Shown here one piece after another: positions 15,253-47,014 of a DNA stretch of 64,000 nucleotides. The notes below the pieces were generated by a model. That model ran no database searches. It saw nothing but the letters and a program-made list of their open reading frames with translations, and was not told where the DNA came from. This stretch comes from Lophium mytilinum (lineage: Eukaryota), in assembly GCA_010093605.1 (NCBI GenBank), contig MU004196.1:1324606-1388605 (forward strand). Direction: 5' to 3'. The position numbers and the translations under genes are program-made. How positions within the stretch are numbered: the first letter of the stretch is position 1; every line of letters begins with the position of its first letter.

Positions 15253-15395
15253 GGTGGCGATGCTTGGGGGGGTGGGAGGGCGAGCAGTGGACTATGGGGG
15301 AAGTAGTGTGATTGAAGCCCGTGGAATGCGGGGAGGGGGAGTCTTTTTGATGATGCGGCGCAGTCGCACAAGTGCTGACGAGAGGTGCGGAGAAT

Positions 15396-16390
15396 GTCCG
15401 TGGATGGGCCGGTAGACCCTGGCTTGCGATTTTAGTATGCAAGGGCCCAATTCTGGTGTTGCAAGGTTCTTGAGGTGATATTTAATGTGGGCTGCGGGAC
15501 TGTGGCAGCTTGAGAGGTGAGGATTGCGGCGAGGGTGCACCCCTGTGAGGGGATTGGTTCACGATTCGAGGACGGTGAATGCAAACTTGAATCTGATACC
15601 GTACCTGGGGGACTATACTAGGCGACAAGACTATTCTTTTCTCAGTTGGTAGATGCGCCCAGCTGGTTTGGGTGTCGTGGTGTCGTGGTAGACGAAGATA
15701 TTGAGGTCGGCGTTCGGCCAAGGCAATAAGGCATCAACATCAGCAACGTTGAGAACATTCCACCAAAGGGTAAATACTCCCCCGAAAGGAGCTAGCTGTG
15801 TCGAAAAAGGTTGTTCTTGACAGGTCCGTCGCTTTCCTCTGCTGAATCCGACCGTTAGTTCTGATGGTGTGGGATTGATGCGTATTCGCCTGACGGACTG
15901 ATGAGCGGACTCTTAGGGTGCACGGGCTAGAGTCCGTGGGGCGCATTCTGTGACGTCGTCGTCCGATCCATGCGGGCGGGTCTTCCCGCACCGCTGGGTG
16001 ACCCTGGCTTAGGCCTTCTTTGCACGTCGATCCATGGACCCTCTCCATCCCTCCTTGCTTTTTGACTTCTAATATTATGCATCGATGAACCTCTATACGA
16101 TGCGACTCGTTAGAAAGTGCTCTTTGGGGGAAATCAACCCAATTTCGATGCTGCAGGATCTGTACACCGCCGGACACTTGCGACCCCTGAAGCAAGCGTA
16201 GCTATTACTGCAAACTAGTCTCCGGACCGCAGTGAATTTAGCACTCTGGAGCCATCACATCACAGAGCGCACTCTCACATGCGATGAGGATTTAACCCAG
16301 CTGTCGGAATTCGCTAGCCACGGACTCTGACGCTGCTGCACACCAAAGTCCGTGGGCCCGCATAAGTGCCGTCATTCGCAGGGATCGGAC
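15396..16390. promoter_or_regulatory. Cluster of CGGAC/GTCCG motifs upstream of the BVMO gene (putative Zn2Cys6 half-sites)
   Basis: 11 occurrences: 15396, 15824, 15894, 15906, 15932, 15961, 16171, 16223, 16321, 16348, 16386. Confidence 0.45.
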
Positions 16391-16559
16391 ACGTAGATCT
16401 TCGGTACAAGGGTATCTGATCTTCTATTTCTGCCTGCATACTATGTACAACATACACCCGTTCGGTACATCTCAGCCCGTCGTCTGAACCGCTGCGGTGC
16501 CTACCACATCTCTTTCATCCAATCCCCAATTATTAATCCTCCGCCGCAACCTCCCCCAG

Positions 16560-17813
16560 TCACTTTCCTTCAAAATCATAGGTTGGCAGCCCCGAACCCC
16601 CCAGCCCACCCCGCTCCCGCTGCAGCTCCACGTCGTACCGGACGTGAATCGCCTGGCTCATCGGCCGCGGCGCCTGCTTCTTCTGCGCTAGCTCCAGCGC
16701 CTGCTCGCTGTCGACGCCTACAATGCTGCTGCAGCGATTCAGCGATCGTTGCGAGTCCGCGCTCGAGTCCGTCGCTGAAGGCTTGGTCGCTGCGAACTGG
16801 CTCACTTTCGCCCGGGTGACGACTCCCCAGGCCTTTAGTAGTGGGCGGACCGACGGCAGGCATGCGGCGATGAGCACGAAGTCGTTCTCGATGCTGTTCC
16901 ATAGGCCGATGTGGAGGGCGCGCGTGTAGAGCTGGTTCAGGGTGGGGTCGCCGAGGAGGGTGGCGTTGGAGGAGACTTTCACGACGGCGAAGATGAAAGC
17001 ACTGGGTGGGATTAGTTGGGACTTTGGGTGTTGGGGTTGAGAGGGGCTGCTTACGCTATGCCTAGGCTCATTAATCCGATGGTGCTAACCTTCTTCCACC
17101 GCGGTAGCTGTAGGTTCCAGATGACGAAGCCGGGGTAGATTGCGAATCCGAGATCCAAAGCTGCGGAGGAAGCTGCGCAACTGGATTAGTATGGTAAGCC
17201 AAAATGAGGAGTTGTACTTACAGCTTCCAACAAGCGCATAGATGATCTGCACATCTCGCGGCCAACACTTCGTCTCTGGATACTTATACGGGTTCCACTG
17301 TCCAGCGATCGGGTTGCACTGGACGAAGCAGATGAAGAACCCAGCAATGCAGACAGCGAAGAGCCCAAGCGCCAGCGACAGGATTATCGTGCGCGTCCAA
17401 GGCTTCGGACGGAAGATCCGAATGAAGAGAAATGCTACGCCGACTTTCGGCAGCGTAACGCTAAGGAACGACCACGCGTCGGTGAAGACGCTCCAGAAGG
17501 TTGCGTCCGGGACGGTGTTGGGGAGGTTATTGGTATCGACTCGACTGGTTGCGCTGAGTGCGATTTGGAACGTGACCATCCGCACAACGTCGAAAACCTT
17601 CGCTCTGTTAGTACCGTGGCTCGTCTGGTAAGGAGGTAGAGGACTAACCCACGAAACGGAAATGATGTAGTCCTCCCAGCCAGCAGCGGCCTCGGAGTAG
17701 AAAATCCGTGAAATTGTTCGCATGGCGAAGACAATTGTCGCGATGATAAAGAATGGCCAGGCCGCCGCCGTGGCTTGGTTGATGAAATGATTGAGATCAG
17801 TAAAATCATCCAT
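16560..17813 (-). CDS. Pth11-like (fungal rhodopsin-domain) integral membrane protein, 4 exons
   Basis: R..SR...GWEDYII, LPKVGVAFLFIRIF, QCNPIAGQWNP...C, DL.FAIYPGFVIWNLQLPRWKK, WNSIENDFVLIAACLPSVRPL; introns at 17648-17598, ~17221-17174, ~17054-17002. Confidence 0.88.
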
Positions 17814-18201
17814 CTTGGCGGTTGTGGCTCAAAGGCGGAGGCTAATGAGTGTTGAGTGTTGAAAGGGAGTTGCGAAAACCGAAGCGACTTTAGGATTGTC
17901 AACCGCCACCATCATCGACATATATGCGAAAGGTCGGGCTCCGGAGCTGCAGGGCTGAGCGGGAAGAGTGGGCTCGAAAAGCCTATCAGGGCTTGCCCGG
18001 AGAAATGTTCCATAAGCAGCGAATCACTACGCAGGTACGACCTCCACTACACCACCGGACATCGATTTGGTCAGCCCCGTTTGGACTTGACGTAGTCGGA
18101 GTCCGTTAATTGTCAACCACCCCCACAGAACAGCCCGCTACCTCGGTCTATGAAGTTTTGTGTATAGGTATTTTCAAACATGTCTGAGAGATCGGTATTG
18201 T

Positions 18202-18235
18202 TGAGGCTCCGATGGCATTATTCAACGGAGCCTCA
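18202..18235. promoter_or_regulatory. Perfect 10-bp inverted repeat (TGAGGCTCCG-N14-CGGAGCCTCA) in the divergent Pth11-like/NRPS-like promoter
   Basis: Seen directly, ~90 bp upstream of the NRPS-like ATG and just before tttaaaa at 18242. Confidence 0.5.
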
Positions 18236-18323
18236 CGGATGTTTAAAAGCACATCTACTGCAACCTCCTCTCAATGCACAATGCAACCAGCTGTCAAAAG
18301 CAGGAAGATAAAATCATCTCATC

Positions 18324-21311: not shown

Positions 21312-22394
21312 TGCTTGCCATTGGCGGTCGGAAGTGTTGTATGACAAACAAGCTGGCTGAGGTCCTCCTGGTGGTGGCGTTATGGGAGGTAGAGTTGGTT
21401 TGAGTTGTATGATAACAGCGTGCAACTTGTCGCATCTTTTTGGAAATTCTCAAATACAATCCATACTTCTACGCATTAAGAATAGCGCTTCTATTAGACG
21501 AGTCCAGAACCCGCTAGCTAGGGCACTCCCCACAGAGGTGTCATGTGAGCAAGACTTAAGCCAGATTAATAAGATATACCTGAGCAACTTCTTGCATCTG
21601 CTTGCAGCATCCCAAAAAGAATGTAAAGCTCTACAGGGTGGGAACAGGGCCAGTTCAGCTGACCAAAGACGTGCTAGCTGGAGCGCAAAACACCAAGGAA
21701 AAGTGATCCGCCAAAAACAGGGAACCACAATGCTGCAGAACGATTGCGACTACCATGCAGAAGCAGGGTAGATGGGTTCCATAATTTCAATATCTCTTCT
21801 TGTGGAAGTATCTAGACGGCTGATGGATTCGTGGAAGTTGCTTACCCTAACCACCGTAGATGCTGTCTTAGCAGCGTGCATGTAGCTAGGGTCGTATATG
21901 TAGCCTTCCAGGGGGGGCACTTTGATCCCCGAGATGGACTTTTCATCCTTCACAGGAAGGCTATGTGGTACGCCCAAAATATAGTACAAGTACGTCCAAT
22001 TAAACGAAAGCGGGTTTTCCTTGTATTTGTGTCTTCAAAGAGGTTCTACAGTCTATTTTCGACGATGCCGACTTTCCATCCAAAAAGCTGATCTAATTCC
22101 AGATTCTAGCCGTCGCAGTGCCTTCACAACAAATACCATCAATCAACACAATGTATATATTAACAGTGTCTCCTTACGGCTCATTGTCAAATTTCCATGT
22201 CGACATTGTATACAGGTTGTCCCTTCACAGTGTGTCTACAATGAATAGATATATATTGCGGAAAATCCCCTCTTCTAATTCTCCCCGCAAACTTTCTAAG
22301 ACTCGTGCTCTGCTGCAACTGTTTTTCAGAACCCGCAGACCCCGTCTTGGAAAACACCGACCACACCCGTCTACGATCGCTTCCAACCACTAGC

Positions 22395-24524
22395 ATGTTC
22401 CCGAACATGCTTCACAACCCTGGTCTAGGTACCGCTTTCCAAAAGACCTTCCCGCCCCAGCTCCTTCGTAGTGATGCTGGCGTTTCCGATTTCATATCTC
22501 TGGCTGCCATCTCAGTCCCCTTTGAGATTCCTGCGATATTCGGCCCACTGTACCGCGTCCTTTCGGTCATGGCTCTGCGTGCATTCCGATTCGATATTCG
22601 GTCCCCCATCATGAAAGCTTTGTTCGTTGCTGGTGTCGTCCAAGGTACCATCGTAGGCTGGAGCTACCTGAAACCCTCCCTCATCGACTGGTTCACGTCC
22701 ACCATCTCGCTCCCGCATACGAACCTGGCTCAACGCCACGTCAAGTCCTGGATGAAGCAAAATCTTCCCCTCACACGCGATCGTCACGTTGAAGTCTTTA
22801 CTGAGGACGATGATATTCACGATGATCAAGAAGATGGCTACCGCAACCCATTCGTAGACATCCCTGCCGTTACGAAGACGAAGGAAGTGCACGAGGTCTC
22901 CTACAAACTCCCGACTTCCCGCTTTTTCTGGCACCGCCGTCGTCTATTCTACTACACGACTTCAACCCACCAGCGGACCAACACAATTACCAGCGCTAAG
23001 GGCGATGTCACTCAAGCCCCGAGCGGCGAACCGGAGGTTAAGTTGGTCTTGATGACTCTCGGTCGCTCACTTACCCCGCTGCGTAGCTTCTTACACGAAT
23101 GCAAGAAGCAACATGAGGCAAGCGTCGACAACACGACCATCTCTTACAGCCGCACAGAGATGAGCCAGCACTGGGGTATGTCGCACGAACGACCCAGCCG
23201 CCCCTTATCTACCATCGACCTCGATGAGAAGCTTAAAACCGCTCTCGTCGCCGACATCAACGAATATCTGAGCCCCCTGCGCGCAAAATGGTACTCAGAT
23301 CGGGGTATCCCATATCGCCGCGGATTTTTATTTCACGGCCCCCCTGGGTGCGGCAAAACCTCCATGGCAAAAGCACTAGCTGGCCACTTCCACCTCCCGC
23401 TCTTCTCAACCAGCCTCAGCCGGAACATGACTGAGGGAACCCTCGAAAGCCTGTTTCGCCAACTCCCCAAGCGCTGCATCGTCCTCCTCGAAGACATCGA
23501 CTCCGCTGGCATCCAGCGCGAGGAGATGAAGCAAGTGGTCCCCGAACAGCCCCTACTTCAAGCCCAAGCGCAGCAGCCAGAGCATTACGGTTACGGCATG
23601 CCGTCTTCTGGGTATAGAGAACTAGCGCGGGCAGTGCATAATTTACCACCCGGCTCGCTATTCGGCCCCCAAGGACTTCAAGCTCAGTCAAGCCGGGTGG
23701 GTGTCAGCCTTAGCTGCTTGCTGAATGTCATTGACGGGCCGAATTCTGAAGAAGGCCGCGTGCTGATTATGACTACCAATACCCCCGAGAGTCTCGATCG
23801 TGCGCTCATCCGGCCTGGCCGGATCGATATGCAGGTCTTCTTCGGCCCTGTCTCCCGCAAGGTGGCTGCGAGCATCTTCCGGCGCATGTACATGCTTGAT
23901 ACACCACCTTCTGGTGTGATCGACAAGAAGCAGGAAGAAGAACTCGCTGAGCAAGCCGATTCGTTCGCTGCACACGTTCCCGAGCTGAAGTTCACCCCCG
24001 CTGAGGTTCAGACGTTCCTGACTATGCACCGCACGCCAGAGCAAGCGATCGCCGGCGCTCAAGACTGGGTTGATAAACTCCTGGTCTCGAAGGAGAAGGG
24101 TCTCAACGTTATTACTGGCGAGACGGATACACCTGGCGATTCGTCGTCCAATGGTTCTGACACCGATGGCTCTGAAACTGGTGGCTCCGACACTGACGTC
24201 TCTGACACTGAAGAGCCACCTAAGAAGGCGGATCGCGAACCCGATGTGCACAACCTCCTAAGCTCGGCGCTCCACCGCATCGCGGTGCTTGAAGAGCGTG
24301 CCTCGCCACCAGCTCTGCGTTCGGACTCCTCCGACGAGACAATGGTGGATGAAGTGTGGCAGACGCCTCTTGGAACCCCAGGACCTCGTCGACTTTCCGA
24401 CGGAGAGTATGCCGATGGCTCTGATGACGAGGATGAGGGGCATTGGATGCGCCCTCCACCAATGACTGCTGAAGAAGAAGAGGCGGAGTACGGTGATGGT
24501 CCGGTTCATGTCCCCTCGGCGTAA
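22395..24524 (+). CDS. BCS1-like AAA+ ATPase with long acidic C-terminal tail
   Basis: RPLSTIDLD, WYSDRGIPYRRGFLFHGPPGCGKTS (Walker A), IVLLEDID (Walker B), LLNVIDG..EGRVLIMTTN, LDRALIRPGRID; first in-frame ATG at 22395. Confidence 0.9.
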   Translation: MFPNMLHNPGLGTAFQKTFPPQLLRSDAGVSDFISLAAISVPFEIPAIFGPLYRVLSVMALRAFRFDIRSPIMKALFVAGVVQGTIVGWSYLKPSLIDWFTSTISLPHTNLAQRHVKSWMKQNLPLTRDRHVEVFTEDDDIHDDQEDGYRNPFVDIPAVTKTKEVHEVSYKLPTSRFFWHRRRLFYYTTSTHQRTNTITSAKGDVTQAPSGEPEVKLVLMTLGRSLTPLRSFLHECKKQHEASVDNTTISYSRTEMSQHWGMSHERPSRPLSTIDLDEKLKTALVADINEYLSPLRAKWYSDRGIPYRRGFLFHGPPGCGKTSMAKALAGHFHLPLFSTSLSRNMTEGTLESLFRQLPKRCIVLLEDIDSAGIQREEMKQVVPEQPLLQAQAQQPEHYGYGMPSSGYRELARAVHNLPPGSLFGPQGLQAQSSRVGVSLSCLLNVIDGPNSEEGRVLIMTTNTPESLDRALIRPGRIDMQVFFGPVSRKVAASIFRRMYMLDTPPSGVIDKKQEEELAEQADSFAAHVPELKFTPAEVQTFLTMHRTPEQAIAGAQDWVDKLLVSKEKGLNVITGETDTPGDSSSNGSDTDGSETGGSDTDVSDTEEPPKKADREPDVHNLLSSALHRIAVLEERASPPALRSDSSDETMVDEVWQTPLGTPGPRRLSDGEYADGSDDEDEGHWMRPPPMTAEEEEAEYGDGPVHVPSA

Positions 24525-33796: not shown

Positions 33797-35005
33797 TCAT
33801 CCAATCCATACCTCCTCCCCGGGCCCAGTAAACACCTCAGCTACATACACCAGCGTCTGCTCCGGCGTTTGATCCAACACAAGCACCAAATGTCCCCCCA
33901 TCGCCCTCAACATCACCCCACTCCCCTCCCACTCCCTCCACCCCTCCGCCGTAAACCACCCGGCCACCCACTCCATCGTCACAAAACTCATCGACATGCG
34001 CCTCGGCGCCCCGTGCGCTCCCGGATACGCCCCCAAAAACCTCGCCTCGGCCCCATTAACTAGCACCCGCTGCCCCTGCCCCGGAACCCGGTGATGCAGC
34101 GAATACGCCAGCGGCCCCATATCCTCCACATTGTTGTTGATAGGGATCAGCGCGCCTCCGAACATATACCGCTCCCATGTCCACCCCAGCTCCTGCCGCT
34201 GCGTCACGTCCTGCATGAACTCGCGGCAGTACCACGGCTCTACCGCCAGCTCGCCGCGCTCGGGGTGCACGAACATGGAGAAGGCGTGCGCAACTTCGTG
34301 CACGAGTGTCTGCGCGAGTACGAAGAGCTGCCGGTACCGGAGCGAGGTTGAGGCTTTCAGGTACTGGTACGCGAAAAAGTCGTAGAAGGAGTGGTGCAGG
34401 CCGATGGTCGGATGTTCGCGGTGGCGCTGCACGCGGGGCCATTTGAAAGGTTTGGCGAAGGGGACGAGAGTGTGGGAGTCGGATATGTCGCGGCCGGGGC
34501 AGGTGATACCGAAGACGCGGGACAGGTCGGGGCGCGCGGGGTTGGCGAACATGAAGAGGAAGGAGACGTTTTTCGACATCTTGAGAAAGGTGTCGGAGAC
34601 GGCGGAGGGGGTTGAGGGGGAGGTTTCGCGCGAGGAGGGCTCCAGGTAGTCGCGGGTGCAGTCGTAGCCTGAGAAGTGGACGTGGTGCCCATATAGGAGG
34701 CGGGGCCAGTAGGAGGAGATAGCTTTGGGATTTGTGAGGAGAAGGGAGGCGAGACGGAGTGCGGGTTTGAGGCGGTTGTAGATTCTTTCGGTGTCCTGGT
34801 TGGGGCCGGTTACCCAGCGGGAGAGCTTGAAAAGGGGATGGATTTCGTTGGTGAGGGAAGGCTGCGGGAGGCCGTCGTTGCCTTGAGTACCGGAGGCGAT
34901 GAGCTCTGCTTTTATTGTGAGGCATACGTTGAGGAGATTTGTTTCTTGGTCCTCGGGGAAGAAAGGGGTTTCATGTACGCCTTGCCCAAAGTTTATGGAG
35001 TTCAT
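33797..35005 (-). CDS. Uncharacterised HExxH zinc metallopeptidase-like protein (~402 aa), paralog 2
   Basis: TLVHEVAHAF and QELGWTWERYMFGG; shares GLP.PSL.N.IH.LF..SRWVT, PAL.LAS, YWP, HPTI.L, EPWY, FLG.Y with 6251-7465. Confidence 0.8.
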   Translation of the reverse strand: MNSINFGQGVHETPFFPEDQETNLLNVCLTIKAELIASGTQGNDGLPQPSLTNEIHPLFKLSRWVTGPNQDTERIYNRLKPALRLASLLLTNPKAISSYWPRLLYGHHVHFSGYDCTRDYLEPSSRETSPSTPSAVSDTFLKMSKNVSFLFMFANPARPDLSRVFGITCPGRDISDSHTLVPFAKPFKWPRVQRHREHPTIGLHHSFYDFFAYQYLKASTSLRYRQLFVLAQTLVHEVAHAFSMFVHPERGELAVEPWYCREFMQDVTQRQELGWTWERYMFGGALIPINNNVEDMGPLAYSLHHRVPGQGQRVLVNGAEARFLGAYPGAHGAPRRMSMSFVTMEWVAGWFTAEGWREWEGSGVMLRAMGGHLVLVLDQTPEQTLVYVAEVFTGPGEEVWIG

Positions 35006-35433
35006 CACGCGAATAGACTAACAAAGCAATACACGGTTCGCAAGAGAGTCAAAATTGGGAAGTCCATATTTGGGGGAGGCGGAAGCCGTGTTTGTATTGC
35101 TGTAAGTGCTGTGCTGTCTGTGTTATGCGTTAGTGGCACATCATGTGCGCATCCATTCTAACGCGCTGGCCATGCAAGCTTGACACGTGTCCCAGCAAAT
35201 GTGAAGCATTCTAGGAGGCTGTTTCCATATGATTTGGCATGTTATGCCGCGTCGGAGTCTCAAATAATACAACGTTTACGAATTTATTGGACTGGTAGAC
35301 ATGATTTGAGAGCGAAAGAGGACTCGCGTAGAGCATGAAGTGTGTTGGCGTCGAGAGGGATAAAAATAGATGTACTGGTAAGATATTATATGAGGGGATG
35401 TAAAGATATGCATTGGTGGCACCTATGTGCAGT

Positions 35434-35943
35434 CTATTCTTGCGTGTTGGAAGTGTTGGCATGACACGCTCTAGTGGAGGCAAGAGCAAGTGATTCAGGC
35501 GTACAACCGGGAGATCATGTCGTCTGCTCAGAGGGTTGCTGGGACTGTTCCACGTGATCTAGAAATCCGTTACGGTGATAATGCACACCAGTCGCTTGGT
35601 TCTGCTGTCACTGAGATAGGCGTGCATGTGCACGCTTGGTCCGACGACGCTACTCCCCTTCAAGGCGAGCCGCTTCCGTGATCTCAGCGCCGAGTGCGGC
35701 GATCTAGCGTTCATGGTTAGCCGTTCGCCGATCGCGTGCACCACTTCTAGCTTGCTCTCTCTTCTTAAGCCTAACCCGGCGATCGAGATCGACCTTCATC
35801 CGGTGGGCCTTCATCTCGGCATCCTCGATAGCTAATTGCCGCTTGCGCTCTCGCCGCTCAGCATCAGCGGCATTGAAAGCTGCTTGAGCTTCTTCATGGG
35901 TGCCACGAGATTGGCCAGCGCCCGGGCGGAGGGTTTGCGGCAT
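35434..35943 (-). pseudogene. Orphan array member A, nonsense-disrupted
   Basis: MPQTLR..coiled coil; frame continues through TAG 35706-35704, TAG 35652-35650, TGA 35610-35608 to HRNGFLDHVEQSQQPSEQTT, matching LRNEFLNGVGRGTEGSQQTS of member B; 3' end approximate. Confidence 0.7.
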
Positions 35944-36615
35944 GTTGGCGTGGGATTTGTAGTGTTGCTGGACTCTTTGTCAATGTTGTGCTTTTGGTAA
36001 CCGTGGTCTTTTGGAGTTTGGTGTGGGCAACCATTTAGTATGTTGGAGACTCGAAGAAGACGAAAAGGACCAGGACTAATCTCGAGCGTGTTATATATCG
36101 ATTCTTTGCAATTGCGGAAAGATTTGTTCCGGGAGAGATGCTTGCTATTGAACTTGCACGTTGTAAAAAAACGGTATACCCTGCTAATGGTTGAGAATGC
36201 TCGTCAAACAGTTGTCCCGAGTTGGGCATGTCGAGGCAAAATAGTCACTCTGAAGAGGCTAAGAGTGTTTTGCTTTTGTATGACATCTGCGGATGAATTA
36301 GATCAGTATGGTAGCTTATAGAAGTGGAGGGCACTTACCCGGAAGGCAAAGAAATAATAGTCATAGGTGGACAGACACAAGTGTACGTATGAGTTATTGG
36401 TTTGTATTGTATGGAGCAATCTAAGGTTGTGCGCTGGCGGCACCTATGTGCACATCAATTTCAACGCGGGAAGTATCTCAGGGTAGAATCACCTGATCTA
36501 TGCGAGCAGGCAAACTATGTCGAGCTGAGAGTTTTGTTCCCATTCATGACTAGTGGATGCCCAAGTTCATGGGAGATCGAATGCCAGGGAGCTGCTTCTA
36601 GGGCGGCTTAGACCA

Positions 36616-37308
36616 TTACACGTCGTCACCGTCCCAGAAGCCAGAGGAACCGCCATCGCGGCGGGAAGCATTGCCAGTCCGACGGGATGTCTCCCGTGTG
36701 CGCTGGGAATTGCCGGATGTCTGTTGCGAACCTTCAGTTCCGCGGCCCACTCCATTCAGGAACTCATTGCGCAGCCCCCGCACACTGCTTGGAGCTGCTG
36801 TGCGGGTGGACTGGTGCGGCTGACGGTGCGTGGACTGGTGGGTTTGACGAGTCGTGGATTGCTGAGTTTGGCGAGACGTAGACTGGTGCGGTAGTCCAGA
36901 CGTGGACCGCTGTGGTTGGCGGCGGGTGGACTGCTGGCTGCTCGTGTACGACGGCGCTGGCCGACGCTGGGAGCCATACTGTGTGTGGCTACGGCCACCT
37001 AGCCGGCTCTCAAGCGGATCCTCGCGGACCCGTCCGAGCAGAGCATCAATGTCGCGCCGATCTTGCTCGATCTCCGCTCTCTTAGCTATGCTCTCTTTTG
37101 CACGCTCGCGCCGCTCTTCCGCCATCTCCGCTTTCCTGGCATCGCTCTCTTTTTCAAACTTCACCCTATTGGCTTTATGCCTCGCCTCCATCTCGACCAT
37201 GTCCCTTGCGTGGCGAGCATCTATTTCAGCAAGGTCTCGGTTGCCTTTGGCGATGATGCCCTCGACGCGCCTGGCCTCCTCTTCATCGGTGCGGAAGCTT
37301 GAAGGCAT
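36616..37308 (-). CDS. Orphan array member B (230 aa): E/R/A coiled coil plus (QST.RQ..)n repeats
   Basis: Intact ORF; TATA-like at ~37465; strong nucleotide and protein similarity to member C (C-terminal GNAS...GGSSGFWD). Confidence 0.8.
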   Translation of the reverse strand: MPSSFRTDEEEARRVEGIIAKGNRDLAEIDARHARDMVEMEARHKANRVKFEKESDARKAEMAEERRERAKESIAKRAEIEQDRRDIDALLGRVREDPLESRLGGRSHTQYGSQRRPAPSYTSSQQSTRRQPQRSTSGLPHQSTSRQTQQSTTRQTHQSTHRQPHQSTRTAAPSSVRGLRNEFLNGVGRGTEGSQQTSGNSQRTRETSRRTGNASRRDGGSSGFWDGDDV

Positions 37309-38014
37309 ATTGCTGTGGTAGCCTGTGCTGTTCTGCGAACCTGTAGGAATTTTGAGGTTCTGGAAGTTCTAGTGTTATGAGCTGTTGGTAGAAGAAGCTT
37401 TGAGTGTCTTGAGTTTTCTGAGGACTTGGTGAAGAAGAAAAGGTTGAGGGCGGGATTAGAAGGCCTTATATACTGATTTATTGTAAGTAGACTATGGTGT
37501 AATAACTAAACAGTGCTTCTTTGTAACTTGTATATTGTGCAAGAACAATGTATTCGTGTACTAGTTGATGATACTTCCAAGAAGTTTGCCTTCATTTATG
37601 AGTGGCGAGGCAAAGAATCAGGGTAAAAGAAGTCACGGTGAAAAGGCTAAGAGTATCTTGCTTTAGTATGATATGCGCATGAATCAGGTACTAGCTTTAA
37701 GTATTTGGGAGCTCCTATATGGAGTCAGAAGAAACAGTACGAATATGAGATGGGAAAGTCAATAGTGTTCGTGCAAGGTATTGATTTGTATTGTAGAAGT
37801 GGATAGATAGAAAGCTCTTCGTTGGTTGCACGTATGTGCAATTAATTCCAACGTGCTGGCCGTGTAAGTATGACACGCACCAGCTAGGGTGAGAACTCTC
37901 TGAGCGAAGTCACCTGATTTATCTGCGCCGGCATTTCATGCCTAACTGTGAACCTCGCAGATATTTATTCGCTATTGAGAAGCGACTTCAAGATACCTCT
38001 ATTGGGTAAGACAG

Positions 38015-38524
38015 CTAATTGTCATTGACGTCCCAGAAGCCAGAGGAGCCGCCATTGCAGCTGGAAGCATTGCCAGTACGCTCGCCCTGTGAGTGGCTAG
38101 ATGTTCCATTGGAACCCCCAGTCGCGCGGCCCACGCCATTCAGGAATGTATCCCGCATCCCCCGCGCACTGCTTGGAGCTGCTGTGCGGGTAGATTGAGA
38201 TTGACGGTGCGTGGACTGTTGCAGTTGGCGAGACGTGGAGTGCCCTGGCTGGCGACGGGTGGATTGCTGGCTGGTGGTGTGCGCTGGGCGAGGATCCTCG
38301 CGGAGCCTGGCGAGGAAGGTATCAGTCTCGCGCCGCTCTTCTGCGTTATTGCTCGGATACCTCGCCTCAATATCGGCTATTTTCTTTTCGTAGTCGATGT
38401 TGCGCTGTTCCATGCGGGCGTCGATCTCGGCAATTTCGGCCTCAAACTTGGCCCTCTTCTCTTAAAGAGTTCGGACGGGTTGGCCGTGGGATCGATCAGC
38501 ACCGGTGCGGGAGCTTCCAGGCAT
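38015..38524 (-). pseudogene. Orphan array member C, single in-frame TAA at codon 21 (or N-truncated product from ATG 38413)
   Basis: MPGSSRTG..VRTL*EKRAKFEAEIAEIDARMEQ..; ORFs 38462-38887 and 38015-38413 are in the same frame; paralog of B. Confidence 0.75.
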
Positions 38525-39494
38525 GTTGGGTCCTGTGTTGTGGGTAGAACCGGTATTGGTGGTGATTCTGGTTGTTTGAGTTTTTGGGAAGCTGTGGAAG
38601 GAAGCTTTGAGTGTCTTGATGTTGTCTGAAGACATGGTGAAGAAGAAAAGATGAGGGCTGGATCGGATGGGCTTATATATCGATTTGCTGTAGCTCCGCA
38701 ATGCGATATGTTCAATAGCACCATGTTGTGGGTAGCTACACTGTGTGATGTTGATGAACAATGTGATATAAAAGGTCATATACTCTCTCAACACTGCGCC
38801 TGGTATATTGGCGCTGTGTATTATTAATGAACAGTGCGATTGGCTGCATTCCACGGCTCTTTCCGTGAACACTGGGAAGTCGAGCATGAATGGAGCTGGA
38901 AATCCTACAGTCCTAGGATATATACTCGAGAGCTCTCAGTAGTCGTCTCAAAACTGCCGCTAAAAGAATTCGGAAATTTCGACTACGATTCGGAGATCGA
39001 TGAAGTAGAAGATAGACAGTTGGGCAACTAACAGATCATCGACTACCTTCTAGATACCTTGCAGTGGCGAGGTGCGAGAGGTATGAAAGCTAAAACAGCT
39101 ATGATGTGCTTATGAGATAGCTGTGCGACGTCGTATTTTAGGCGCAACTGACCCTTCAGTGACATTCTCATATCGGCGAGGTAGGGGTACCAGCGGAGAT
39201 CGATGGTAGTCAAGCATGGGCGGCACTAGATTTGATAAGAAGAGAAGTCACACATATTTGGAATGGACAAAAGTATGGAGAATGTGTTGTTTTCGGCTTA
39301 AGATGCTAGGGTTACCTATTGGTAGCAAACGTATGCCAAGGAGCAGGCTCTCGCCTAAGGCTATCAGAGAGGGGGAACCAAACGAATCTGCGAAGTTCAT
39401 CGATTTTCTGGATTACCCTTCCATCATCTCAGGCGGATTTAGCTGGGTCCTGTGGCGAGAGGTAGCAGATGCATAGCCCATCCGCGATCAATAT

Positions 39495-40322
39495 CTACCA
39501 AAGACCGAGAGCCGATAGCGTGGCACTCACCAAATTTACGTTGGTGGCAGGCTCGGCTGGCGTCTTGGCTGGATTCTCGGCTGCTGTCTTGGTTGGTGTC
39601 GCCGCTGGGAGATTCGTGTTTGGCCGAGTTTTCGCAGACGGTTCCCGGTGCGAGCTCGATTGCCACGATCGCCCGGCAAGAGAATCGGACAACAGAATAT
39701 ACGAATCGCGATGGCGAAGTCGAGTAGATCCAGACTCTTGTCGTGCGCGAGGTTGGCTTATGGAATGTCGTGTTGAATAGGGCTCGTAACGAGCCTCATT
39801 GCGCTGCCAGTCTCCGCCGGATCGCCTACGTGACTGTGAGCTCGGGGGCAGATCACCCGTCCGCAAAGACTGTGAGCTTCGACGCGAGTCACCTGTCCGT
39901 GAAGACTGTGAGCTTTGGCGCCCGTCGCTGCTCTTGAGCGTGCCACCCGTCCGCGATGACTGTGAGCTCTGACGCCCCCCACCGTTCCGGTGCGAGTCAC
40001 CCGTATGCAAAGGCAGAGACTCGCTCTTCAGAAAGGACGGTAGCGACGGGCGGGACGTCCTGTCGGGGATGACCTGGTCGGCCTTGGCAAACCTCACCGT
40101 CTTCTTGGACCTGCCATGCCTTCCAGCTTTGCGGAGGGCACCTTTCGCGCGCCTGGATTCCCTGCGTTGGTGGGTCACATCCGGGGCGTGGGCTGGATCA
40201 TCCAGCCGTCGACGCTCTGATAGCGTGCTCAGGATCGGCTGGGAATCCCGATCGGAGCTCCTAGCGTAGGGGTTCGGCCCCCGACGGGAGTAGCCGGTGG
40301 TGTGACGAGATGCAGGAGGCAT
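39495..40322 (-). CDS. Orphan array member D (275 aa), Arg/Ser-rich with (R.SSQS.RTG)n repeats
   Basis: Intact ORF; N-terminus (S.H.TG.S...RR.DDP) and promoter resemble member E. Confidence 0.7.
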   Translation of the reverse strand: MPPASRHTTGYSRRGPNPYARSSDRDSQPILSTLSERRRLDDPAHAPDVTHQRRESRRAKGALRKAGRHGRSKKTVRFAKADQVIPDRTSRPSLPSFLKSESLPLHTGDSHRNGGGRQSSQSSRTGGTLKSSDGRQSSQSSRTGDSRRSSQSLRTGDLPPSSQSRRRSGGDWQRNEARYEPYSTRHSISQPRARQESGSTRLRHRDSYILLSDSLAGRSWQSSSHREPSAKTRPNTNLPAATPTKTAAENPAKTPAEPATNVNLVSATLSALGLW

Positions 40323-41258
40323 TGTCGTCTGGGTGTTGGCTAGTGGAATTTGGGGGTTTGAGTCTGTGATTTTTGGGAAGCTTGGAAGATGGGTATGAAC
40401 TTGTGTTTCGAAGCTTGGAAGACTCGATTTGGTGCAGAGGAGAATAAGAGCGGAGTAAAAGCGTTTTATATAGTTTCATCTTTGGCCCATACAATGGTAT
40501 GTTGCCCTTCACAATCGACTCTACCCTTGAGTTATCGTCTTTGAACGTACACAATGAGTGCTATTCGTGCACAATAAGCTTCGAAAGAGTTGTAGGACGA
40601 TGGATGATGACGAATGGTAAGCGTGGGAGCTGAAGGATGGCATCGAAGATCGCCATGATGTCCATGCTTAGGGAAGAATAATGAACCCTGGGTATGACGC
40701 CGAGTTTCGAGAATTCCAGGCTTCAGGAGACTGCCAATTTTGACTTTTGATTCAAAATCCGGAATTCTGAATGTACGACTATCAAGGACAGACACTAGGG
40801 ATTTGGAAAGCAAGACCGAAACGTCATATTGTCTAGCCGTAGGGCGCCCCCAAATATATAATCCGAGCAGGGGTGTGCAGGGCTGAAAAGGGAACATGTA
40901 GACTCCTGGTTTTGTTCCTGAGACATGTTTCCTCTTCACAGGACGCACGGATGGGATCAAGGGAACAGGACACTCACGACAAGTTTGAAATCAGTGCAGG
41001 CAAACAGAGCAGAAAAGAGTAGATGTAAGTGGAATGTATTTTTCGCCTGATAGGGTGATGTTCTCACACGTTGGTGGCACCTATGTGCACATGAAACCCA
41101 ACGCGTAAGGGGAAAGGACTAGGCAGCTTGATTCAAAGCTATGCCGCTCAGCGCATTATGCTAAGCTTGAGGCTCTCACCACTTGATGTTAATGCCCGAA
41201 TCCAGGGCCTGTCGATGTCGACTTCCGTAGTATGAGATATTTAGTAGCCATCTCCATT

Positions 41259-42098
41259 CTAGAAGTTTGACGAGCCACCGTTGCGGTGAGCAGACTCATC
41301 TTGACGACGAGAGGCGTCCTGTGTGCGCGTTGGCCGAGAATCTCGAGCGGTTCGATGAGAGGATGCGGCGATGCGCCGAGAAGGCTCATCATGACGACGA
41401 GTGGTGCCTTGTGCATGCGTTATTCGGGAATCTCCAGTGGTCTGCTGGGAGGATCCAGCGATTCGCCGAGAAGGCTCATGCTTACCACGAGTGGTGCCCT
41501 GTGCACGCGTTGTTCGGGAATCTCCAGTAGTCTGCTGGGAAGATCCAGTGATACGTCGGGAAGGCTCATCCTGACGACGAGTGGTGGCCTGTGTAAGAGT
41601 CGACCGAGAATCTACAGTGGTTCGCTGGGAGACTCCAGCGACGCGCGCTACCTCACGAGCCAACCCGTCACGAAGCCCACGCGCACGATCGGGCTCAACC
41701 GCGAAAGTCGGACGAGCTTGAGAGTGGCTGGTCTGAGGACGTCGGCTCCCGGGCCGATTGCGTTCCTGGCGCTCTATCTCAAGCTCAGCTAGCTCTTTCA
41801 CAAATGCAACGTAGTCGCGATCGGATTTGGCTGCGCTGGCATTGCATTCGGCGAGGATGGCATCGAATTCGCCTTGGATGGCATCGAATTCACCTTGGAT
41901 GCGATCCATGGAAGCTAGCGTTCGATCCCACTCGCGTAGCGAATGCTGCGCCTCGTCTAGAAGGCGGCTTGGGTCATCTGGATGACGGCGGTCTTGTCGA
42001 GTGGTACGGCTCGACTCCTGATAGGAGCGGCCGGTGTTGTGAGATGGCTGAGAAGGCATGCCGGAACGGCCGTTGTTGCGCGTCGACTCGGAAGGCAT
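41259..42098 (-). CDS. Orphan array member E (279 aa): coiled coil plus four 30-aa repeats
   Basis: ATG at 42098; ARGLRDGLAREVARVAGVSQRT matches VRGLRNEFLNGVGRGTEGSQQT of B; 90-bp repeats starting 41291, 41381, 41471, 41561; ends RNGGSSNF like B/C. Confidence 0.8.
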   Translation of the reverse strand: MPSESTRNNGRSGMPSQPSHNTGRSYQESSRTTRQDRRHPDDPSRLLDEAQHSLREWDRTLASMDRIQGEFDAIQGEFDAILAECNASAAKSDRDYVAFVKELAELEIERQERNRPGSRRPQTSHSQARPTFAVEPDRARGLRDGLAREVARVAGVSQRTTVDSRSTLTQATTRRQDEPSRRITGSSQQTTGDSRTTRAQGTTRGKHEPSRRIAGSSQQTTGDSRITHAQGTTRRHDEPSRRIAASSHRTARDSRPTRTQDASRRQDESAHRNGGSSNF

Positions 42099-42576
42099 AC
42101 CGAATGTCTGGTGGTGGTGGGTTGGGATTGTGAAGTTTGAGTTTGGAATTTTGGGTAAGCTTTGTGAGTACTTGGAAGCTTGAACGAAACTCAGTTTGGT
42201 GAAAAATGAAACGAGAGGTGAGCCGAGGGGCTTTATGTACTCCCATCTTGGGATCAAAAGACCACATATGTGCAATTACAATGAAACCTACGTTTGAAAG
42301 ATGTGTGCTGTAATGGACACAATGAGTATTGTTCGTGCACAATGACTTCAACAGAATCCACCTGGAAATAGAACGATGGTACCTGAGGAGATTTGGGGAA
42401 CTTTACCAAGAATTCCTGCTAGCGAGGCCCTTTCTGAGAACCCATCGGTGGGAACCGTCGAGCTGATTGCGGGCTCAACACGGTGTAGGACGAACATTCG
42501 GAGTATATTCCAACGTCATCTTACCCCCCATAGCAACCCTATATACTCCCTTTCCTATATAGTTAATGTAATAAGA

Positions 42577-43083
42577 TAGTGATGGAAATGGACTGGAGTA
42601 GACTGGATGAAGCCTTTAATCCACGCGGTCCACTAGAAATCGCTGTAGAGCTCCAGGAGCGCCAGGAGCTCTACAATAGGGCTAAGGGTTACCTAATATA
42701 GCTAGTATCTATCTAAGAAGAGTTTAGTGTAGGTAAGTTTTAGGTGAAAGGTTTAAAGAGCCTTATATATTACTATTAGCTTATAGGTTTATAGCTAAAT
42801 AACAGCTAGAAAGGTAATAGAGCTTATAGAGTAGGCATTTTAGAAGATCTAGAAGGTAACTAGCACGCAAAAGCTATGTAAAAATTACGTAAGTATTACG
42901 TGACTATTTGCCTGAACCAATTAGAACCTAAGAAATATTGGCCTAGGAAGCCATTAGAGCGCCAGGATTATCTATAACCTTTAATCCACGCGGTCCAAAT
43001 AGAAACCCAGTCTAATCTAAAGCTTTCTTCGGGTGGCTCTATCTAGTCCAAGTCTAAATGGCTCCAGTCCATTTCCATTACTG
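42577..43083. mobile_element. Non-autonomous hAT element (MITE, 507 bp), RIP-mutated
   Basis: 22-bp TIRs tagtgatggaaatggactggag / ctccagtccatttccattactg; 8-bp TSD taataaga (42569-42576) vs caacaaga (43084-43091); left ~125 bp resemble reverse complement of 5722-5843. Confidence 0.9.
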
Positions 43084-43491
43084 CAACAAGAGTTCACCAT
43101 TATTAGGCGTTTTAGCCAGCAATCACGAGTCTCAAGGAGATTGATCATTACCAACAGACCAGTGATATAGGAAAGATTCGAACTATCGAGGCATTTGACA
43201 CGCTTCAATGCAAGTCATATGAGCGGTATGGGAATGTGGTGATTTGTAAGATGGGATTGGGGTTGCATAGATTGATGCACGGGAGAAATTATGGCGCATT
43301 GGAAGCGTATTGACCATCACCTAGCTGCGGGAGAAAGACACATGCTATGAAAGACGACGCATCAAGTATGAGACACGAGCACGGGCGTCGTGCACCTCAG
43401 GCTACGACATGTTCGATGTCGAAACGCTTGGATCCCGCCCATACTTCATAAAATCGGTTCGGTGAGTGACGACTCGCAAGGCATCATGCTC

Positions 43492-44064
43492 TCAGAAATT
43501 GTCAATGATATCATCAAAATGATGATCACCTCCAGCTTTCTTCTCAGGCTTCCGACGACTAGTGGACCTATGTCGGGGGGGTGCGCCGGGTATCACTGCC
43601 CTCGCTGTGGACCGCTTCCGTTCGCGCGATCGACCATCACCATCACCCGCCTTTCCTAGGCGAGGCTCGATGGCGGCATCGAAGGACGCTTCATTCTCCG
43701 CAGGATCGACTACTCGCGTCCTTGACCGATTCCTGGAGGCCTCGCGACGGAGTACGGCGGGTACCTGCTTCTTGGAGTGCGTGCGCTGAAGTGGTGGTGC
43801 CCCGATTGTCATGGAGCGCTTACGCTCCAGCCTTGACCTACTCCATTCACTCGCGGCTTCATCCATCGCGGGATCCACTGAACGACCCCGGTTCTCTTCG
43901 GTGACATGGCTCCGCTGGTATTCTTCTCGAAGAGCGTGGTATTGCTTGGCTCGCTCTTCTCCAATAGCCCGAGTCTTCTCTTCGAGGCCGCGTTGGAGAT
44001 CTCCTATCACGGCTACCAATTCTGGGTCGGGCTTCTTCGCTGTCTCAGAGCCGCGCCTGGACAT
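43492..44064 (-). CDS. Small orphan protein (190 aa), coiled coil plus Arg-rich; possible distant array member F
   Basis: Intact ORF, same strand and size class as array; internal repeat VDPA..EAS; upstream gtgcacaatg and gtgaacaat motifs like D/E promoters. Confidence 0.65.
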   Translation of the reverse strand: MSRRGSETAKKPDPELVAVIGDLQRGLEEKTRAIGEERAKQYHALREEYQRSHVTEENRGRSVDPAMDEAASEWSRSRLERKRSMTIGAPPLQRTHSKKQVPAVLRREASRNRSRTRVVDPAENEASFDAAIEPRLGKAGDGDGRSRERKRSTARAVIPGAPPRHRSTSRRKPEKKAGGDHHFDDIIDNF

Positions 44065-45919
44065 GGTCAAGTTGGTGTGTTTTTCTGGATTTTTAAGGGT
44101 TGTTGAAGATTTTGCTTGAAGATGCTAGGCAATAGTTTACAACGAATTCCAGTGTGGTGAGGGAGACGTCAAAAGAACGGAGTTGACGTGATTCATATAT
44201 CTGCGCTATTGCTGTGCACAATGGTATAAACCCCTGTAAATTGAAATGTTTTTCTTGAATGTGTCCAGAGCGTGATGTTCGTGAACAATAGCTGATTGAC
44301 ATTCCTAGCTGTGTAGGCATGTAGGTGGGCAGCCAAGGACCATCACCAGTAACCTTCGCTGGCGCGACTATGATATACTTGCTACAAAGCAACCCCCCGT
44401 TGATCACCATCGTTCTGTGACGTCTGCGTGGTTCCTCAATAGACCGAGCACGACGGTCGCGAGCCTCTTTCAGCCTTGTCGTCTTTCGCTGCTGAGTTGA
44501 GGGCTCCGAGGGCGCACTCGGATCCGGGCTGAGGTTTGTGGATACAATTTCACTGCCCAGCAAAATCATGGATACCGTAGGATTCATGGGATTCGCCGTG
44601 GCCAGCTTCGGGGGGTGCTGTCTGGCTGAATGGGGGGTGGTATTGCGAGTGGATGTCCGATCTGGAGGGAGTGGTGGCGGCCTCTAGTAAGGTGGCATTC
44701 TGGAGCATGTCCTATGAAGGTGGGTGTCGAGTTTTGATCTTGGGATGCTGGCGAAGGTGAGGGGATCTGCATTTCAATAGCTTTGCGACCCCTTCGATCA
44801 GTATAGAGAATGTTGAAAGTTGAGTGAGAGTGCTATCTAGTATCCCAGCTTTACTTTACTCCACAGGGACGAGGTTTCTTTGAGAATGCGTATTCCACAT
44901 TGAGAGATCGAAAGCTGGCGATTTGGCCTGCACTTTACAATGCTGTCAGCGTTGGTTACGGACAAGTATACTGACTAGCATTCGCCGGTTCGATGCTAGT
45001 TATATGCGGAGACGACGTACATGAGACAGAAGCACCAAGAGCCGAGAGACAATGTTCGAATATCTGGCAAGCAAATTGAGACACTCACATTGATCTCAAC
45101 ATCCCAGTAAGATGTCTCCTCACACCGCACATGAAGAAGCGATGAAGACAAACTTTTCACTGTCTTCTCCTACCTCAAAACGCTACCAAGGCAACTTGTC
45201 CTTGTCTTCGGTGGTGAAGGGCACTCGGGTTTGACGACATTGATGAAGGGTGACGTCACCACATCTGACCTTCACCGTGAACCACTTCACCTGGGCGCCG
45301 AGACGGAGATCTCCGTGTCCCCGTTCGAATCTTCATCTGTGCGCAAAGCACAACGCTGGGACGACCGTGACTCAATATCGCTCGGCAACTGGGTTTCTCC
45401 GTGCCCGTGGGAGTGCAACATTGTCGCTGGGGCACGGACATTGGCGAAGTGAAGCATATCTCGTTCTGCACGTGACAGCGTTTGCAATGGGAGTCTCAGA
45501 TCTTACCGCGGAACAATGAAGAAGATAAGAATGAGATAGGAAAGAAAGTAGGATGCTATCCCTGGGAGGGTTACATTTGGAATACCGAACTTTCAGAACT
45601 CTCATGAGGCGATACCGGCGGCTTAAGACGAAAAAGACACAGTATTTTCCCCTCTTTATCACACATCTAAGCGAAAACACAGCGGTCGAAAAGATTGATA
45701 TACCTAGATACGAACGGAGTTATCTCCCATATCCCCAGTATGCGTCTTTGAAGATGATGAACCGTGCTGAGCACATGCCAGATGCCCAAGCCAGCTAGCA
45801 ATCCGACCATGTGCCCCTCATCTCACCGCATTCCCGTCCCTCTCCTTCGATCTTTCAACAGCATTGCCAGCTGTCATTCCAGCGTATTTATCCACGATCT
45901 CAGCCCAACGCCAGCAACC

Positions 45920-47014
45920 ATGCCTTCGAGCTCAAAACCCATCGGAGGCTACTACTCCCAACTCCCATATACCCCTCCTCCCTCCACATCCACCCAAACC
46001 AAGCCGTCCGACAAGCCAGCACCCCCAGCTCCACCGGCGCCATCAGCTCCACCACCACCCACCTCTCCAACGAGCTCACCACCCCCCCAAACCGTCTCAA
46101 AGCAAGACACCGCCGCCCCACCTCCCTCAACCACCTCCTCCAATCCCAAGGCCTCAGCAACATCCATATCCAATCCCAGCAGCCCTCCCACCTCCACATC
46201 CTCCGCCCTCATAACCAACACCATCTGGATCCAGCCCCCGGGCTACAGCTTCCTCCCCGGCGCCCTCACCGCCCCCATCCCCAGCATCCTCCACTTCGCC
46301 CTTCCCCCCTTCCCACACGCCGCCAACCACTCCATCGCCCAATCCTCCTCCTCGAACCCCTGCACCCCTTACTCCAACGGTACGGCGATGGGATTCTGGT
46401 CCGGCATCCCCGTCGAAAACGACTACGTCACAACGGGCGAAGACCCCGCGCCGGTGTGGCAACTGCGCCTCGTTACCGCAGACCCGGTGTACTTTTTCGA
46501 TGCGGGGGATGGTGGCGATGATGGGGCGTGGAAGTGCTGGAAGTATGGGCGGGTGGGGGTCGTGAATCCGGTTGGGGGGGTGGATGGGGGGGAGATTGAG
46601 GCGCTGCGGAGTATAGCGATGGGGTTGTCGACGATGGGGCACGACGGGATGCCGACGGGGGTGCCGAGAGGGGGGGAGTGGGTTTCGATGGCGCAGACGA
46701 CGACGACGGGAGCACCCACCCCAGAGACGAGGGTGGTGGCGACGGGGACGGGGACGGGGAACGCGACGGGGAATGCTTCTGGGACAGCGAAGGGTGGGAA
46801 GGGGATGTCGAGTCTGACGGTTGGGGGGATTGTGTTTGGGGGGTTGAGCTTGGTTGGTGTGCTGGTGCTTGGGTGGTGTTTGTTGAAGAAGCGGCGGGAT
46901 AGGAGGAGGCTGAGGGTAGGGCATGAGAGGAATTCGTCAAGTTTGGAGTTTAGGGATATGGCGCCTGCGAGTGGACCGGAGATGGAGCGGCTGAGATCGA
47001 ATGAGAGGCGTTGA
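45920..47014 (+). CDS. Ser/Thr/Pro-rich protein with degenerate cupredoxin-like domain and C-terminal TM helix (364 aa)
   Basis: F.P..L.A..NHSIAQSS..NPC.P..GFWSG..DPVYFF..C..GRVGVVNP pattern of fungal extracellular serine-rich cupredoxins; TM GGIVFGGLSLVGVLVLGWCLL then KKRR. Confidence 0.8.
   Translation: MPSSSKPIGGYYSQLPYTPPPSTSTQTKPSDKPAPPAPPAPSAPPPPTSPTSSPPPQTVSKQDTAAPPPSTTSSNPKASATSISNPSSPPTSTSSALITNTIWIQPPGYSFLPGALTAPIPSILHFALPPFPHAANHSIAQSSSSNPCTPYSNGTAMGFWSGIPVENDYVTTGEDPAPVWQLRLVTADPVYFFDAGDGGDDGAWKCWKYGRVGVVNPVGGVDGGEIEALRSIAMGLSTMGHDGMPTGVPRGGEWVSMAQTTTTGAPTPETRVVATGTGTGNATGNASGTAKGGKGMSSLTVGGIVFGGLSLVGVLVLGWCLLKKRRDRRRLRVGHERNSSSLEFRDMAPASGPEMERLRSNERR

Follow-up and report, generated by a model that had tools for sequence, protein, structure and literature searches.

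What is a run of six short open reading frames (ORFs) that lie head to tail on one strand of a fungal genome: a gene family coding for proteins that selection maintains, or DNA that happens to have stayed open? We examined this question for a locus in Lophium mytilinum, using a 64,000-nucleotide stretch of GenBank assembly GCA_010093605.1 (contig MU004196.1, positions 1,324,606 to 1,388,605 of the forward strand). We refer to this whole stretch as the window, and all positions given below are window positions. An earlier description, which we call the original prediction, had proposed that an array of five or six same-strand orphan genes at this locus forms a rapidly evolving birth-and-death family. 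Our analysis indicates that the array is probably (we estimate a probability of about 0.6) a real protein-coding family of tandem orphan genes under some constraint, known here from its sequence alone. We read it as a young, species-restricted family with birth-and-death turnover, where species-restricted means absent from the annotated proteins of any other organism in the collections that we searched.

Six units lie head to tail on one strand

The array consists of six ATG-started ORFs, all on the minus strand, which we lettered A to F by increasing coordinate. Their start codons are at positions 35943 (A), 37308 (B), 38524 (C), 40322 (D), 42098 (E) and 44064 (F), with start-to-start distances from A to F of 1365, 1216, 1798, 1776 and 1966 nt, and the GC content across the array is 48-56%. 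As had been predicted, units A to E all begin with ATG-CC(N), encoding Met-Pro; F begins with Met-Ser. The number, spacing and common strand of the units were also borne out, with the correction that two units are broken, A being a decayed copy and C having a nonsense codon; the other four are intact. Reads of the one sequencing run that we found under the species label covered only positions 35111-35167, outside the genes, and have no bearing on their expression. Searches by tblastn with the six proteins as queries found no further copies in the window. The units are:

35500..35943, minus strand: unit A, decayed copy; ORF 35704-35943, 79 amino acids, MPQ start
36616..37308, minus strand: unit B, intact coding sequence (CDS) of 230 amino acids; helix 8-96, 24-bp (8-residue) repeat, RGLR block, GGSSGFWDGDDV tail
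38015..38635, minus strand: unit C, open frame with one TAA at 38462-38464; ancestral Met-Pro ATG at 38524
39495..40322, minus strand: unit D, intact ORF of 275 amino acids; isoelectric point (pI) 11.6, 54-bp repeats at 39884-40004, predicted fully disordered
41259..42098, minus strand: unit E, intact ORF of 279 amino acids; predicted helices 43-113 and 136-155, 30-residue repeat x3.9 (41288-41641), GGSSNF end
43492..44064, minus strand: unit F, intact ORF of 190 amino acids; MS start, internal duplication of ~55 residues

A canonical splice donor sequence, GTGAGT, is present at about position 39528 on the minus strand, 11 codons before the stop codon of D, and the true C-terminus of D may differ from that of the 275-residue ORF if an intron begins there. 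Another ORF of 164 amino acids (44093-44587, minus strand) overlaps the promoter of F and contains the Arg-rich stretch RLKEARDRRARSIEEPRRRHR; it could be a chance ORF or the relic of a seventh unit.

No relatives of the proteins were found outside the array

The claim that these are orphans without a known domain held up as far as the databases searched go. In the word-based, profile and metagenome searches, every hit was either a protein of the window itself or an artefact. In Pfam, none of seven ORFs from the array region matched a family at the curated cut-off, and the best sub-threshold E-values (0.17-0.75) were to unrelated models. The Pfam models for LEA, dehydrin, CON-6 and Hsp12 proteins likewise gave no match to the seven ORFs at cut-off. 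A word-based search with B recovered only the annotated gene model of C (one of 1487 candidates), a search with E found no relatives among 3115 candidates, and with F the one hit among 275 candidates was F itself. Sequences identical to the B and F proteins are present in the Atlas and in the protein collection, respectively. We then used a profile made from B, C and E in an exhaustive hmmsearch of 1.84 billion representative sequences, and it matched the C model (E = 2.2e-36) and one repeat protein of 1025 amino acids (P0002). We rejected the latter as an artefact, consisting of nine short stretches aligned to the low-complexity profile positions 114-144. A protein pattern run against Joint Genome Institute (JGI) metagenomes gave 466 matching stretches, none of which was confirmed by tblastn. 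Feature and structure searches of the Atlas with B and D gave no usable match (template modelling scores by query at most 0.49, feature scores at most 0.76).

The sole solved protein chain matched by the B/C/E profile was PDB 3vem_A, the MOM1 CMM2 coiled coil (25 bits, E = 1.9e-4), in which profile positions 9-56 align with residues 55-100. What the two have in common is an E/R/A-rich helix. Because the similarity is confined to a 46-residue helical stretch and no other region is shared, the match most likely reflects helix composition and is not evidence of homology or function. The portions of the literature naming L. mytilinum that we consulted contain nothing on these genes, and what we consulted on Dothideomycete families (orphan, tandem or disordered) and on de novo genes has nothing specific to them.

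Promoters are better conserved than the proteins they precede

We scored the similarity of each protein pair as a z-score against 300 composition-preserving shuffles. B and C are very similar (z = 30) and E is related to both (B-E, z = 5.5; C-E, z = 4.5); for each of these three pairs, 0 of the 300 shuffles reached the observed score. D has no significant protein similarity to any other member (z from -1.0 to 0.8, with D-E at 0.4), nor has F (z from -1.0 to 2.2, the highest being E-F) or the 79-residue ORF of A (z from -1.0 to 2.2). BLASTP gave E-values of 4e-4 for B-E, 0.71 for B-D and 1.1 for B-F. The B-E match spans the RGLR..L..V.R..G.SQ.T block and the tail, and we read the C-terminal 30 residues of B as resembling one copy of the 30-residue repeat of E. 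When only the first 50-70 residues of D and E were compared, z was 3.0-3.1, and 22-24 of 2000 shuffles reached the score; the repeats of D and E have no significant similarity to each other (z = -0.2). A block of the form RG(L/M)R..(F/L)L..V.R..G.S..T had been reported in A, B, C and E. It is present in B, C and E, and in A it appears only when stop codons are read through. The GGSS.F tail is found in B, C and E, as described.

At the DNA level, matches between units occur only for B and C and form three blocks, which cover the 5' untranslated region (UTR) and start, the C-terminal coding region and the 3' flank; E matches itself through its 90-bp repeat. The B and C loci can be aligned in full, from the promoter through the 3' flank, and the intergenic sequences at 36243-36466 and 37631-37853 are 68% identical over 233 nt (E = 2.5e-12), in agreement with the homology between spacers that had been noted.

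We compared the upstream regions by local alignment of the 330 nt 5' of each ATG, using four promoters from the window as controls. The strongest similarities were between B and C (z = 41) and between D and E (z = 16.5), followed by C-E (5.5) and C-D (5.4), and then by A-C (3.9), C-F (3.4), D-F (2.4) and E-F (2.3). All 30 control-promoter pairs had z of 2.0 or less. For D and E, homology extends through about 265 nt of promoter and 5' UTR (z = 17.4). Short motifs recur at similar distances from the start codons. Every unit has a TATA box between -135 and -164, and units B to F share a YATTGTKC element (-226 to -254). TTCACCA (-105 to -125) occurs in B, C and E, and the 5' UTRs of B to E contain AAGCTT. 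The upstream features are:

-154 from the start of A, minus strand: TATA box of A
37309..37560, minus strand: promoter and 5' UTR of B; CATTGTTC at -242, TATATAA at -164, TTCACCA at -125, AAGCTT at -92
38745..38762, minus strand: upstream element of C, ATTGTTCATCAACATCAC, at about -238 from the ancestral ATG
40323..40590, minus strand: promoter and 5' UTR of D; 27-nt element at 40549-40575, TATATAA at -150
42099..42360, minus strand: promoter and 5' UTR of E; 27-nt element at 42317-42343, TACATAA at -141, TTCACCA at -105
44199..44290, minus strand: promoter of F; ATTGTTCACGAACATCAC at 44272-44289, ATTGTGCAC at 44214-44222, TATATG at -135

The element ATTGTGCAC has exactly three sites in the 64-kb window, upstream of D, E and F only (0.35 expected). 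CATTGT/ACAATG, which we take to be the core bound by HMG-box (mating) regulators, occurs 8 times in the array promoters where 1.4 are expected, a count that is inflated because the sites are partly inherited copies of one element. The six promoters contain 2 stress response element (STRE) cores (6.6 expected) and no heat-shock elements.

On these comparisons we regard B and C as clear paralogues and E as a distant paralogue. D appears to be linked to E, and both to C, mainly via homologous promoters, and F and A seem only weakly tied to the array. The proposal of one family is upheld at the protein level for B, C and E, and not for D and F, which have no significant protein similarity to other members. 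Rapid birth-and-death evolution agrees with what we found: units and flanks are homologous, the protein z-score falls from 30 to 5.5 and 4.5 and then to non-significance, and the array includes one decayed and one nonsense copy.

Two copies are broken

In unit A, the frame after the 79-residue ORF runs through three further in-frame stop codons to a remnant that resembles the shared block of B, with HRNGFLDHV..SQQPSEQTT in A opposite LRNEFLNGV..SQQTSGNSQ in B. When A is translated through its stops (with X at each), it aligns colinearly with B at z = 2.7, a score reached by 9 of 500 shuffles. We classify A as a decayed copy because the shared block is visible only on reading through these three further stops.

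Unit C is a continuous frame from 38635 to 38015 whose sole stop is the TAA at 38462-38464, 20 codons past the ancestral Met-Pro ATG (codon 21). The public gene model of C (P0001, 'hypothetical protein BU16DRAFT_566090 [Lophium mytilinum]') starts at a new upstream ATG at 38635 and excises positions 38461-38550 as a 90-nt intron, which has a weak donor (GTTCTA) and takes out exactly the only in-frame stop. This intron may be a device of the gene caller, that is, an annotation rescue of a nonsense-mutated copy. The original prediction had called the genes intronless; P0001, the only public model that we saw for the array, has an intron.

B and C differ in the manner of coding sequences

We estimated the ratio of nonsynonymous to synonymous substitution rates (dN/dS) between B and C from ungapped DNA-aligned blocks. 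The original prediction had named values near 1 in all copies as evidence against the family; for B and C, dN/dS is 0.40 in frame 0 and is 1.13 and 1.63 in frames 1 and 2. A protein-guided alignment gave 0.43 (bootstrap range 0.27-0.66). Differences between B and C at the three codon positions number 24, 17 and 37, an excess at third positions. Gap lengths are also informative: 4 of the 6 gaps in the B/C coding sequence are multiples of three (18, 57, 51 and 15 nt) and the remaining two add up to 42 nt, compared to 3 of 14 gaps in the flanks. Among the four 90-bp units of E, dN/dS is 0.62 in frame and 0.93 and 1.26 out of frame, although the pairs of repeat units are not independent of each other. 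The plus strand has no ATG-started ORF of at least 190 amino acids and the minus strand has four; in 300 first-order Markov resamples the mean was 0.107 and the maximum was 2. We rejected repeat-induced point mutation (RIP) as the source of the divergence between B and C, because transitions do not dominate: the two loci differ by 173 transitions and 208 transversions, a ratio of 0.83.

A long charged helix and a basic disordered tail are predicted

AlphaFold2 predicts that B is a single helix from residue 8 to 96 (confidence score pLDDT 93-97), followed by residues 97-230 at low confidence (mostly below 50). In E it predicts a helix at 43-113 (pLDDT 89-98) and a second, short one at 136-155 (pLDDT 70-85), where the RGLR block lies, with the rest below 50. 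The Atlas model of D has a pLDDT of 0.40. The coiled coil of the original prediction was supported as far as these long helices in B and E go, and no further. By eye, heptad spacing in the B helix is clear at the helix ends only and the middle is ER/K-like, and this helix could be a single alpha-helix instead of a coiled coil.

All six proteins are basic and hydrophilic as a whole, with pI values of 9.0-11.6 and grand average of hydropathy (GRAVY) values of -1.25 to -1.51; three ordinary proteins from the window, used as controls, have GRAVY values of -0.13 to -0.42. They contain 12-20% Arg, 1-6% Lys, up to 25% Ser+Thr and 1-5% aromatic residues, and their Gly contents are 5.1% (A), 7.8% (B), 8.1% (C), 6.9% (D), 6.5% (E) and 6.8% (F). 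The charge is unevenly distributed: the helical parts are acidic to neutral (pI 5.8 for B 1-105 and 4.5 for E 46-115) and the tails have pI 11.1-12.0. We found no membrane or signal-like segment, as judged by hydropathy and not by a dedicated signal-peptide predictor; the maximum 19-residue Kyte-Doolittle window is at most 0.81 and the N-termini are hydrophilic. The separate repeat expansions attributed to individual units are present as described. B has a 24-bp repeat (x3.5), D a 54-bp repeat (x2.2, with SSQS spaced at 18, 12 and 12 residues), and E a 90-bp repeat (x3.9) plus a 21-bp repeat (x2.6) in the N-terminal helical part. F has an internal duplication of about 55 residues (z = 7.2; 0 of 1000 shuffles).

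A candidate history and mechanism

Tandem duplication of a unit about 1.2-2 kb long has probably produced the array. In this unit, an upstream element containing CATTGT and a TATA box would precede a CT-rich 5' UTR (about 140 nt) and a Met-Pro coding sequence, with a palindromic 3' element behind it. The shared build, represented by B and E, is predicted to be one long charged alpha-helix and then a strongly basic disordered tail rich in Arg, Ser, Thr and Gln, and the tails appear to change mainly by gain and loss of short tandem repeats. We infer that the helix may serve for self-association or as a rigid spacer, that the multivalent Arg-rich tails may condense or coat polyanions, with RNA or DNA the likeliest of these, and that repeat number would set the valency of the tails. 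Expression would be switched, and not constitutive, through the shared TATA and CATTGT promoter. The family may have originated by de novo birth or by extreme divergence.

These elements differ in how probable we consider them. The polyanion-binding or condensing mechanism is suggested by composition, and we offer it tentatively, at well below even odds. Disordered regions that are Arg-rich or of mixed charge are known from RNA-binding and condensate proteins. The array proteins resemble these in their tails, which have a pI of about 12, far more Arg than Lys, many Ser, Thr and Gln residues and few aromatics, and in the mixed R/E charge of the helix, but they have no RGG, RS or RRM signature. 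Sexual, spore, packaging, drive and allorecognition roles have been mentioned for the array. CATTGT enrichment is the sole result that is relevant to them, and they have no direct support.

Alternative explanations

Several observations weigh against a constrained coding family or its proposed mechanism. Nucleotide identity between B and C is 66% in the coding sequence, no higher than the 63-68% of the flanks, and the constraint is therefore weak. A codon-usage likelihood trained on six long ORFs from the window weakly favoured the proposed frame for B, C and F, and did not favour it for D, E and A. Two of the six copies are broken, A by decay and C by one nonsense codon; the repeat-unit comparison in E draws on dependent pairs; the membership of D and F comes from promoter motifs and composition only; several of the degenerate promoter and 3'-element patterns were built from the sites they went on to count; and Pfam searches found no RGG, RRM or other nucleic-acid-binding domain, which tells against the polyanion-binding part. 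The broken copies, the codon usage and the flank comparison would also suit a different explanation, that the units are young ORFs largely without function (proto-genes or duplicates in decay), open by chance and composition and annotated because of their length; so would the lack of relatives in any search made and the public model of C, with its poor-donor intron cut exactly to remove the stop. For the array as a whole we think this unlikely, though it may apply to D, E and F individually. It is weakened by the in-frame dN/dS of 0.40 between B and C (1.13 and 1.63 in the other frames) with its third-position excess and in-frame indels, by the same trend in the E repeats, by four ORFs of at least 190 amino acids where 0.107 were expected, and by a TATA promoter architecture kept in all six units.

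If the units do code for proteins, their composition invites comparison with hydrophilins and LEA-like protectants, which would be induced by water deficit and protect the proteins and membranes of a fungus that lives on bark and undergoes drying. Induction by water deficit is one of the defining criteria of hydrophilins. The physicochemical criteria for hydrophilins, according to the parts of the source that we consulted (PMC11277543), are Gly >6% and a hydrophilicity index >1 (GRAVY < -1). GRAVY is below -1 in all six proteins and Gly is 6.5-8.1% in B to F, so that five of six have both properties; they are also small, largely disordered and lineage-specific, and a screen in another Dothideomycete, in the parts consulted, reported many lineage-specific candidates (PMC6730492). 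A tandem set of TATA-driven genes would moreover fit inducible expression. However, A has only 5.1% Gly, and C alone reaches the 8% threshold used in that screen, whose criteria, in the same parts, are also passed by proteins of nucleic-acid metabolism (PMC6730492). The array proteins also depart from hydrophilins in owing their charge to Arg and not to Lys, in being strongly basic (pI 9-11.6), in having no LEA, dehydrin, CON-6, Hsp12 or other Pfam domain, and in having promoters poor in STRE cores (2 found, 6.6 expected) and without heat-shock elements. We consider a protectant function of this kind rather unlikely. Far less probable still, in our view, is that the array acts in the sexual cycle as a selfish or recognition system, such as a spore killer, meiotic driver or allorecognition locus. 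A fast-diversifying tandem orphan family and the 8 CATTGT/ACAATG sites (1.4 expected) are circumstantial points in its favour, but the motif counts are inflated by common promoter ancestry, and the proteins have no similarity to known families, no membrane segments in hydropathy windows, and no nuclease, kinase, HET or NLR domain in Pfam searches of the seven ORFs.

Relation to known systems

A constrained orphan family, which we prefer among these explanations, would be new by sequence, yet the phenomenon is a familiar one, taxon-restricted genes for disordered proteins, and the array reveals no new molecular system. Tardigrade CAHS proteins are lineage-restricted, tandemly expanded orphans with a long helix flanked by disorder, and they are not Arg-rich or basic. 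The array shares with them the combination of helix and disorder, tandem expansion and orphan status, a likeness by architecture only, and differs in that its proteins are Arg-rich and basic. Other fungal taxon-restricted clusters are alike in having no homologues, short basic disordered products, tandem turnover, and an AT-rich block and a MITE-like (miniature inverted-repeat transposable element) insert in the region. They differ from the array in that its promoters and UTRs are better kept than its proteins (for D-E, upstream z of 16.5-17.4 vs 0.4 for the proteins). To judge from these alignments, the most unusual feature of the array is that its promoters and UTRs have persisted longer than the sequences of its proteins.

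Taxon-restricted genes for disordered proteins are common and seldom dissected. Within 9 kb, this locus offers a natural series that runs from the near-identical architecture of B and C, through the recognizable remnants in E, to D and F, which retain promoter and composition only, with nonsense and decayed copies in addition. It lends itself to the question of which properties of a disordered protein are retained by selection (composition, charge pattern and number of repeats over sequence), and it bears on the birth and death of orphan families. In its most ambitious form, our interpretation would be of a lineage-born family caught in mid-expansion, in which selection keeps the promoter, Met-Pro, helix plus Arg-rich tail, and composition, and whose products are developmentally switched, self-assembling polyanion binders. 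We give this only a small chance of being correct in full. If it were, the proteins might, for example, compact or protect RNA or chromatin in long-lived, desiccation-exposed fruit bodies or spores, and would be a fungal counterpart of the lineage-specific protectant and condensate proteins of anhydrobiotic animals.

A palindromic element follows four of the units

An 18-nt element, TGCACATAGGTGCCRCCA, has four matches in the 64-kb window (0.10 expected, for a pattern derived from the same four sites). All are on the minus strand, and they follow A, B, C and E only:

35414..35431, minus strand: 3' element after A (TGCACATAGGTGCCACCA), ~410 nt upstream of the ATG of a 402-residue ORF
36435..36452, minus strand: 3' element after B, 164 nt past the stop
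37823..37840, minus strand: 3' element after C, 175 nt past the stop, 2 mismatches
41072..41089, minus strand: 3' element after E, 170 nt past the stop

The element is embedded in a palindrome of about 35 nt, CGTTGG..GCAC ATAG GTGC..CCAACG (core GCACATAGGTGC), which could be an RNA hairpin or a binding site for a dimer. A consensus fold has 10 predicted pairs and no compensatory changes among just four sequences, and an Rfam scan of positions 34000-45500 gave no matches at E-values up to 1. Eleven loci in JGI metagenomes match a 21-nt form of the 3' element. They have 61-66% GC, and we regard them as chance matches because neither tblastn (best E = 0.37) nor blastn found them similar to the array. 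The 402-residue ORF (33797-35005, minus strand) lies directly downstream of A and has an HEVAH (HExxH-type) motif and no Pfam match. On its other side the array is flanked by an ORF at 45761-47014.

Other features of the window

The interval between F and E contains a MITE-like insert of 505 bp (42578-43082). Its terminal inverted repeats are 21 nt long and 95% complementary, and it has a direct repeat of 20 nt in its interior. At the beginning of the window, positions 1-6000 form an AT-rich block (27% GC) adjoining DNA of 46-61% GC; it looks like a RIP-degraded repeat region. The stretch at 13342-24524, between this block and the array, includes four genes:

13342-15291, minus strand: flavin monooxygenase
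17085-17828, minus strand: membrane protein with a Fung_rhodopsin domain
18312-21311, plus strand: enzyme resembling a nonribosomal peptide synthetase (AMP-binding, PP-binding, thioesterase)
22245-24524, plus strand: BCS1-type AAA ATPase

Together, these genes could be a small secondary-metabolite cluster.

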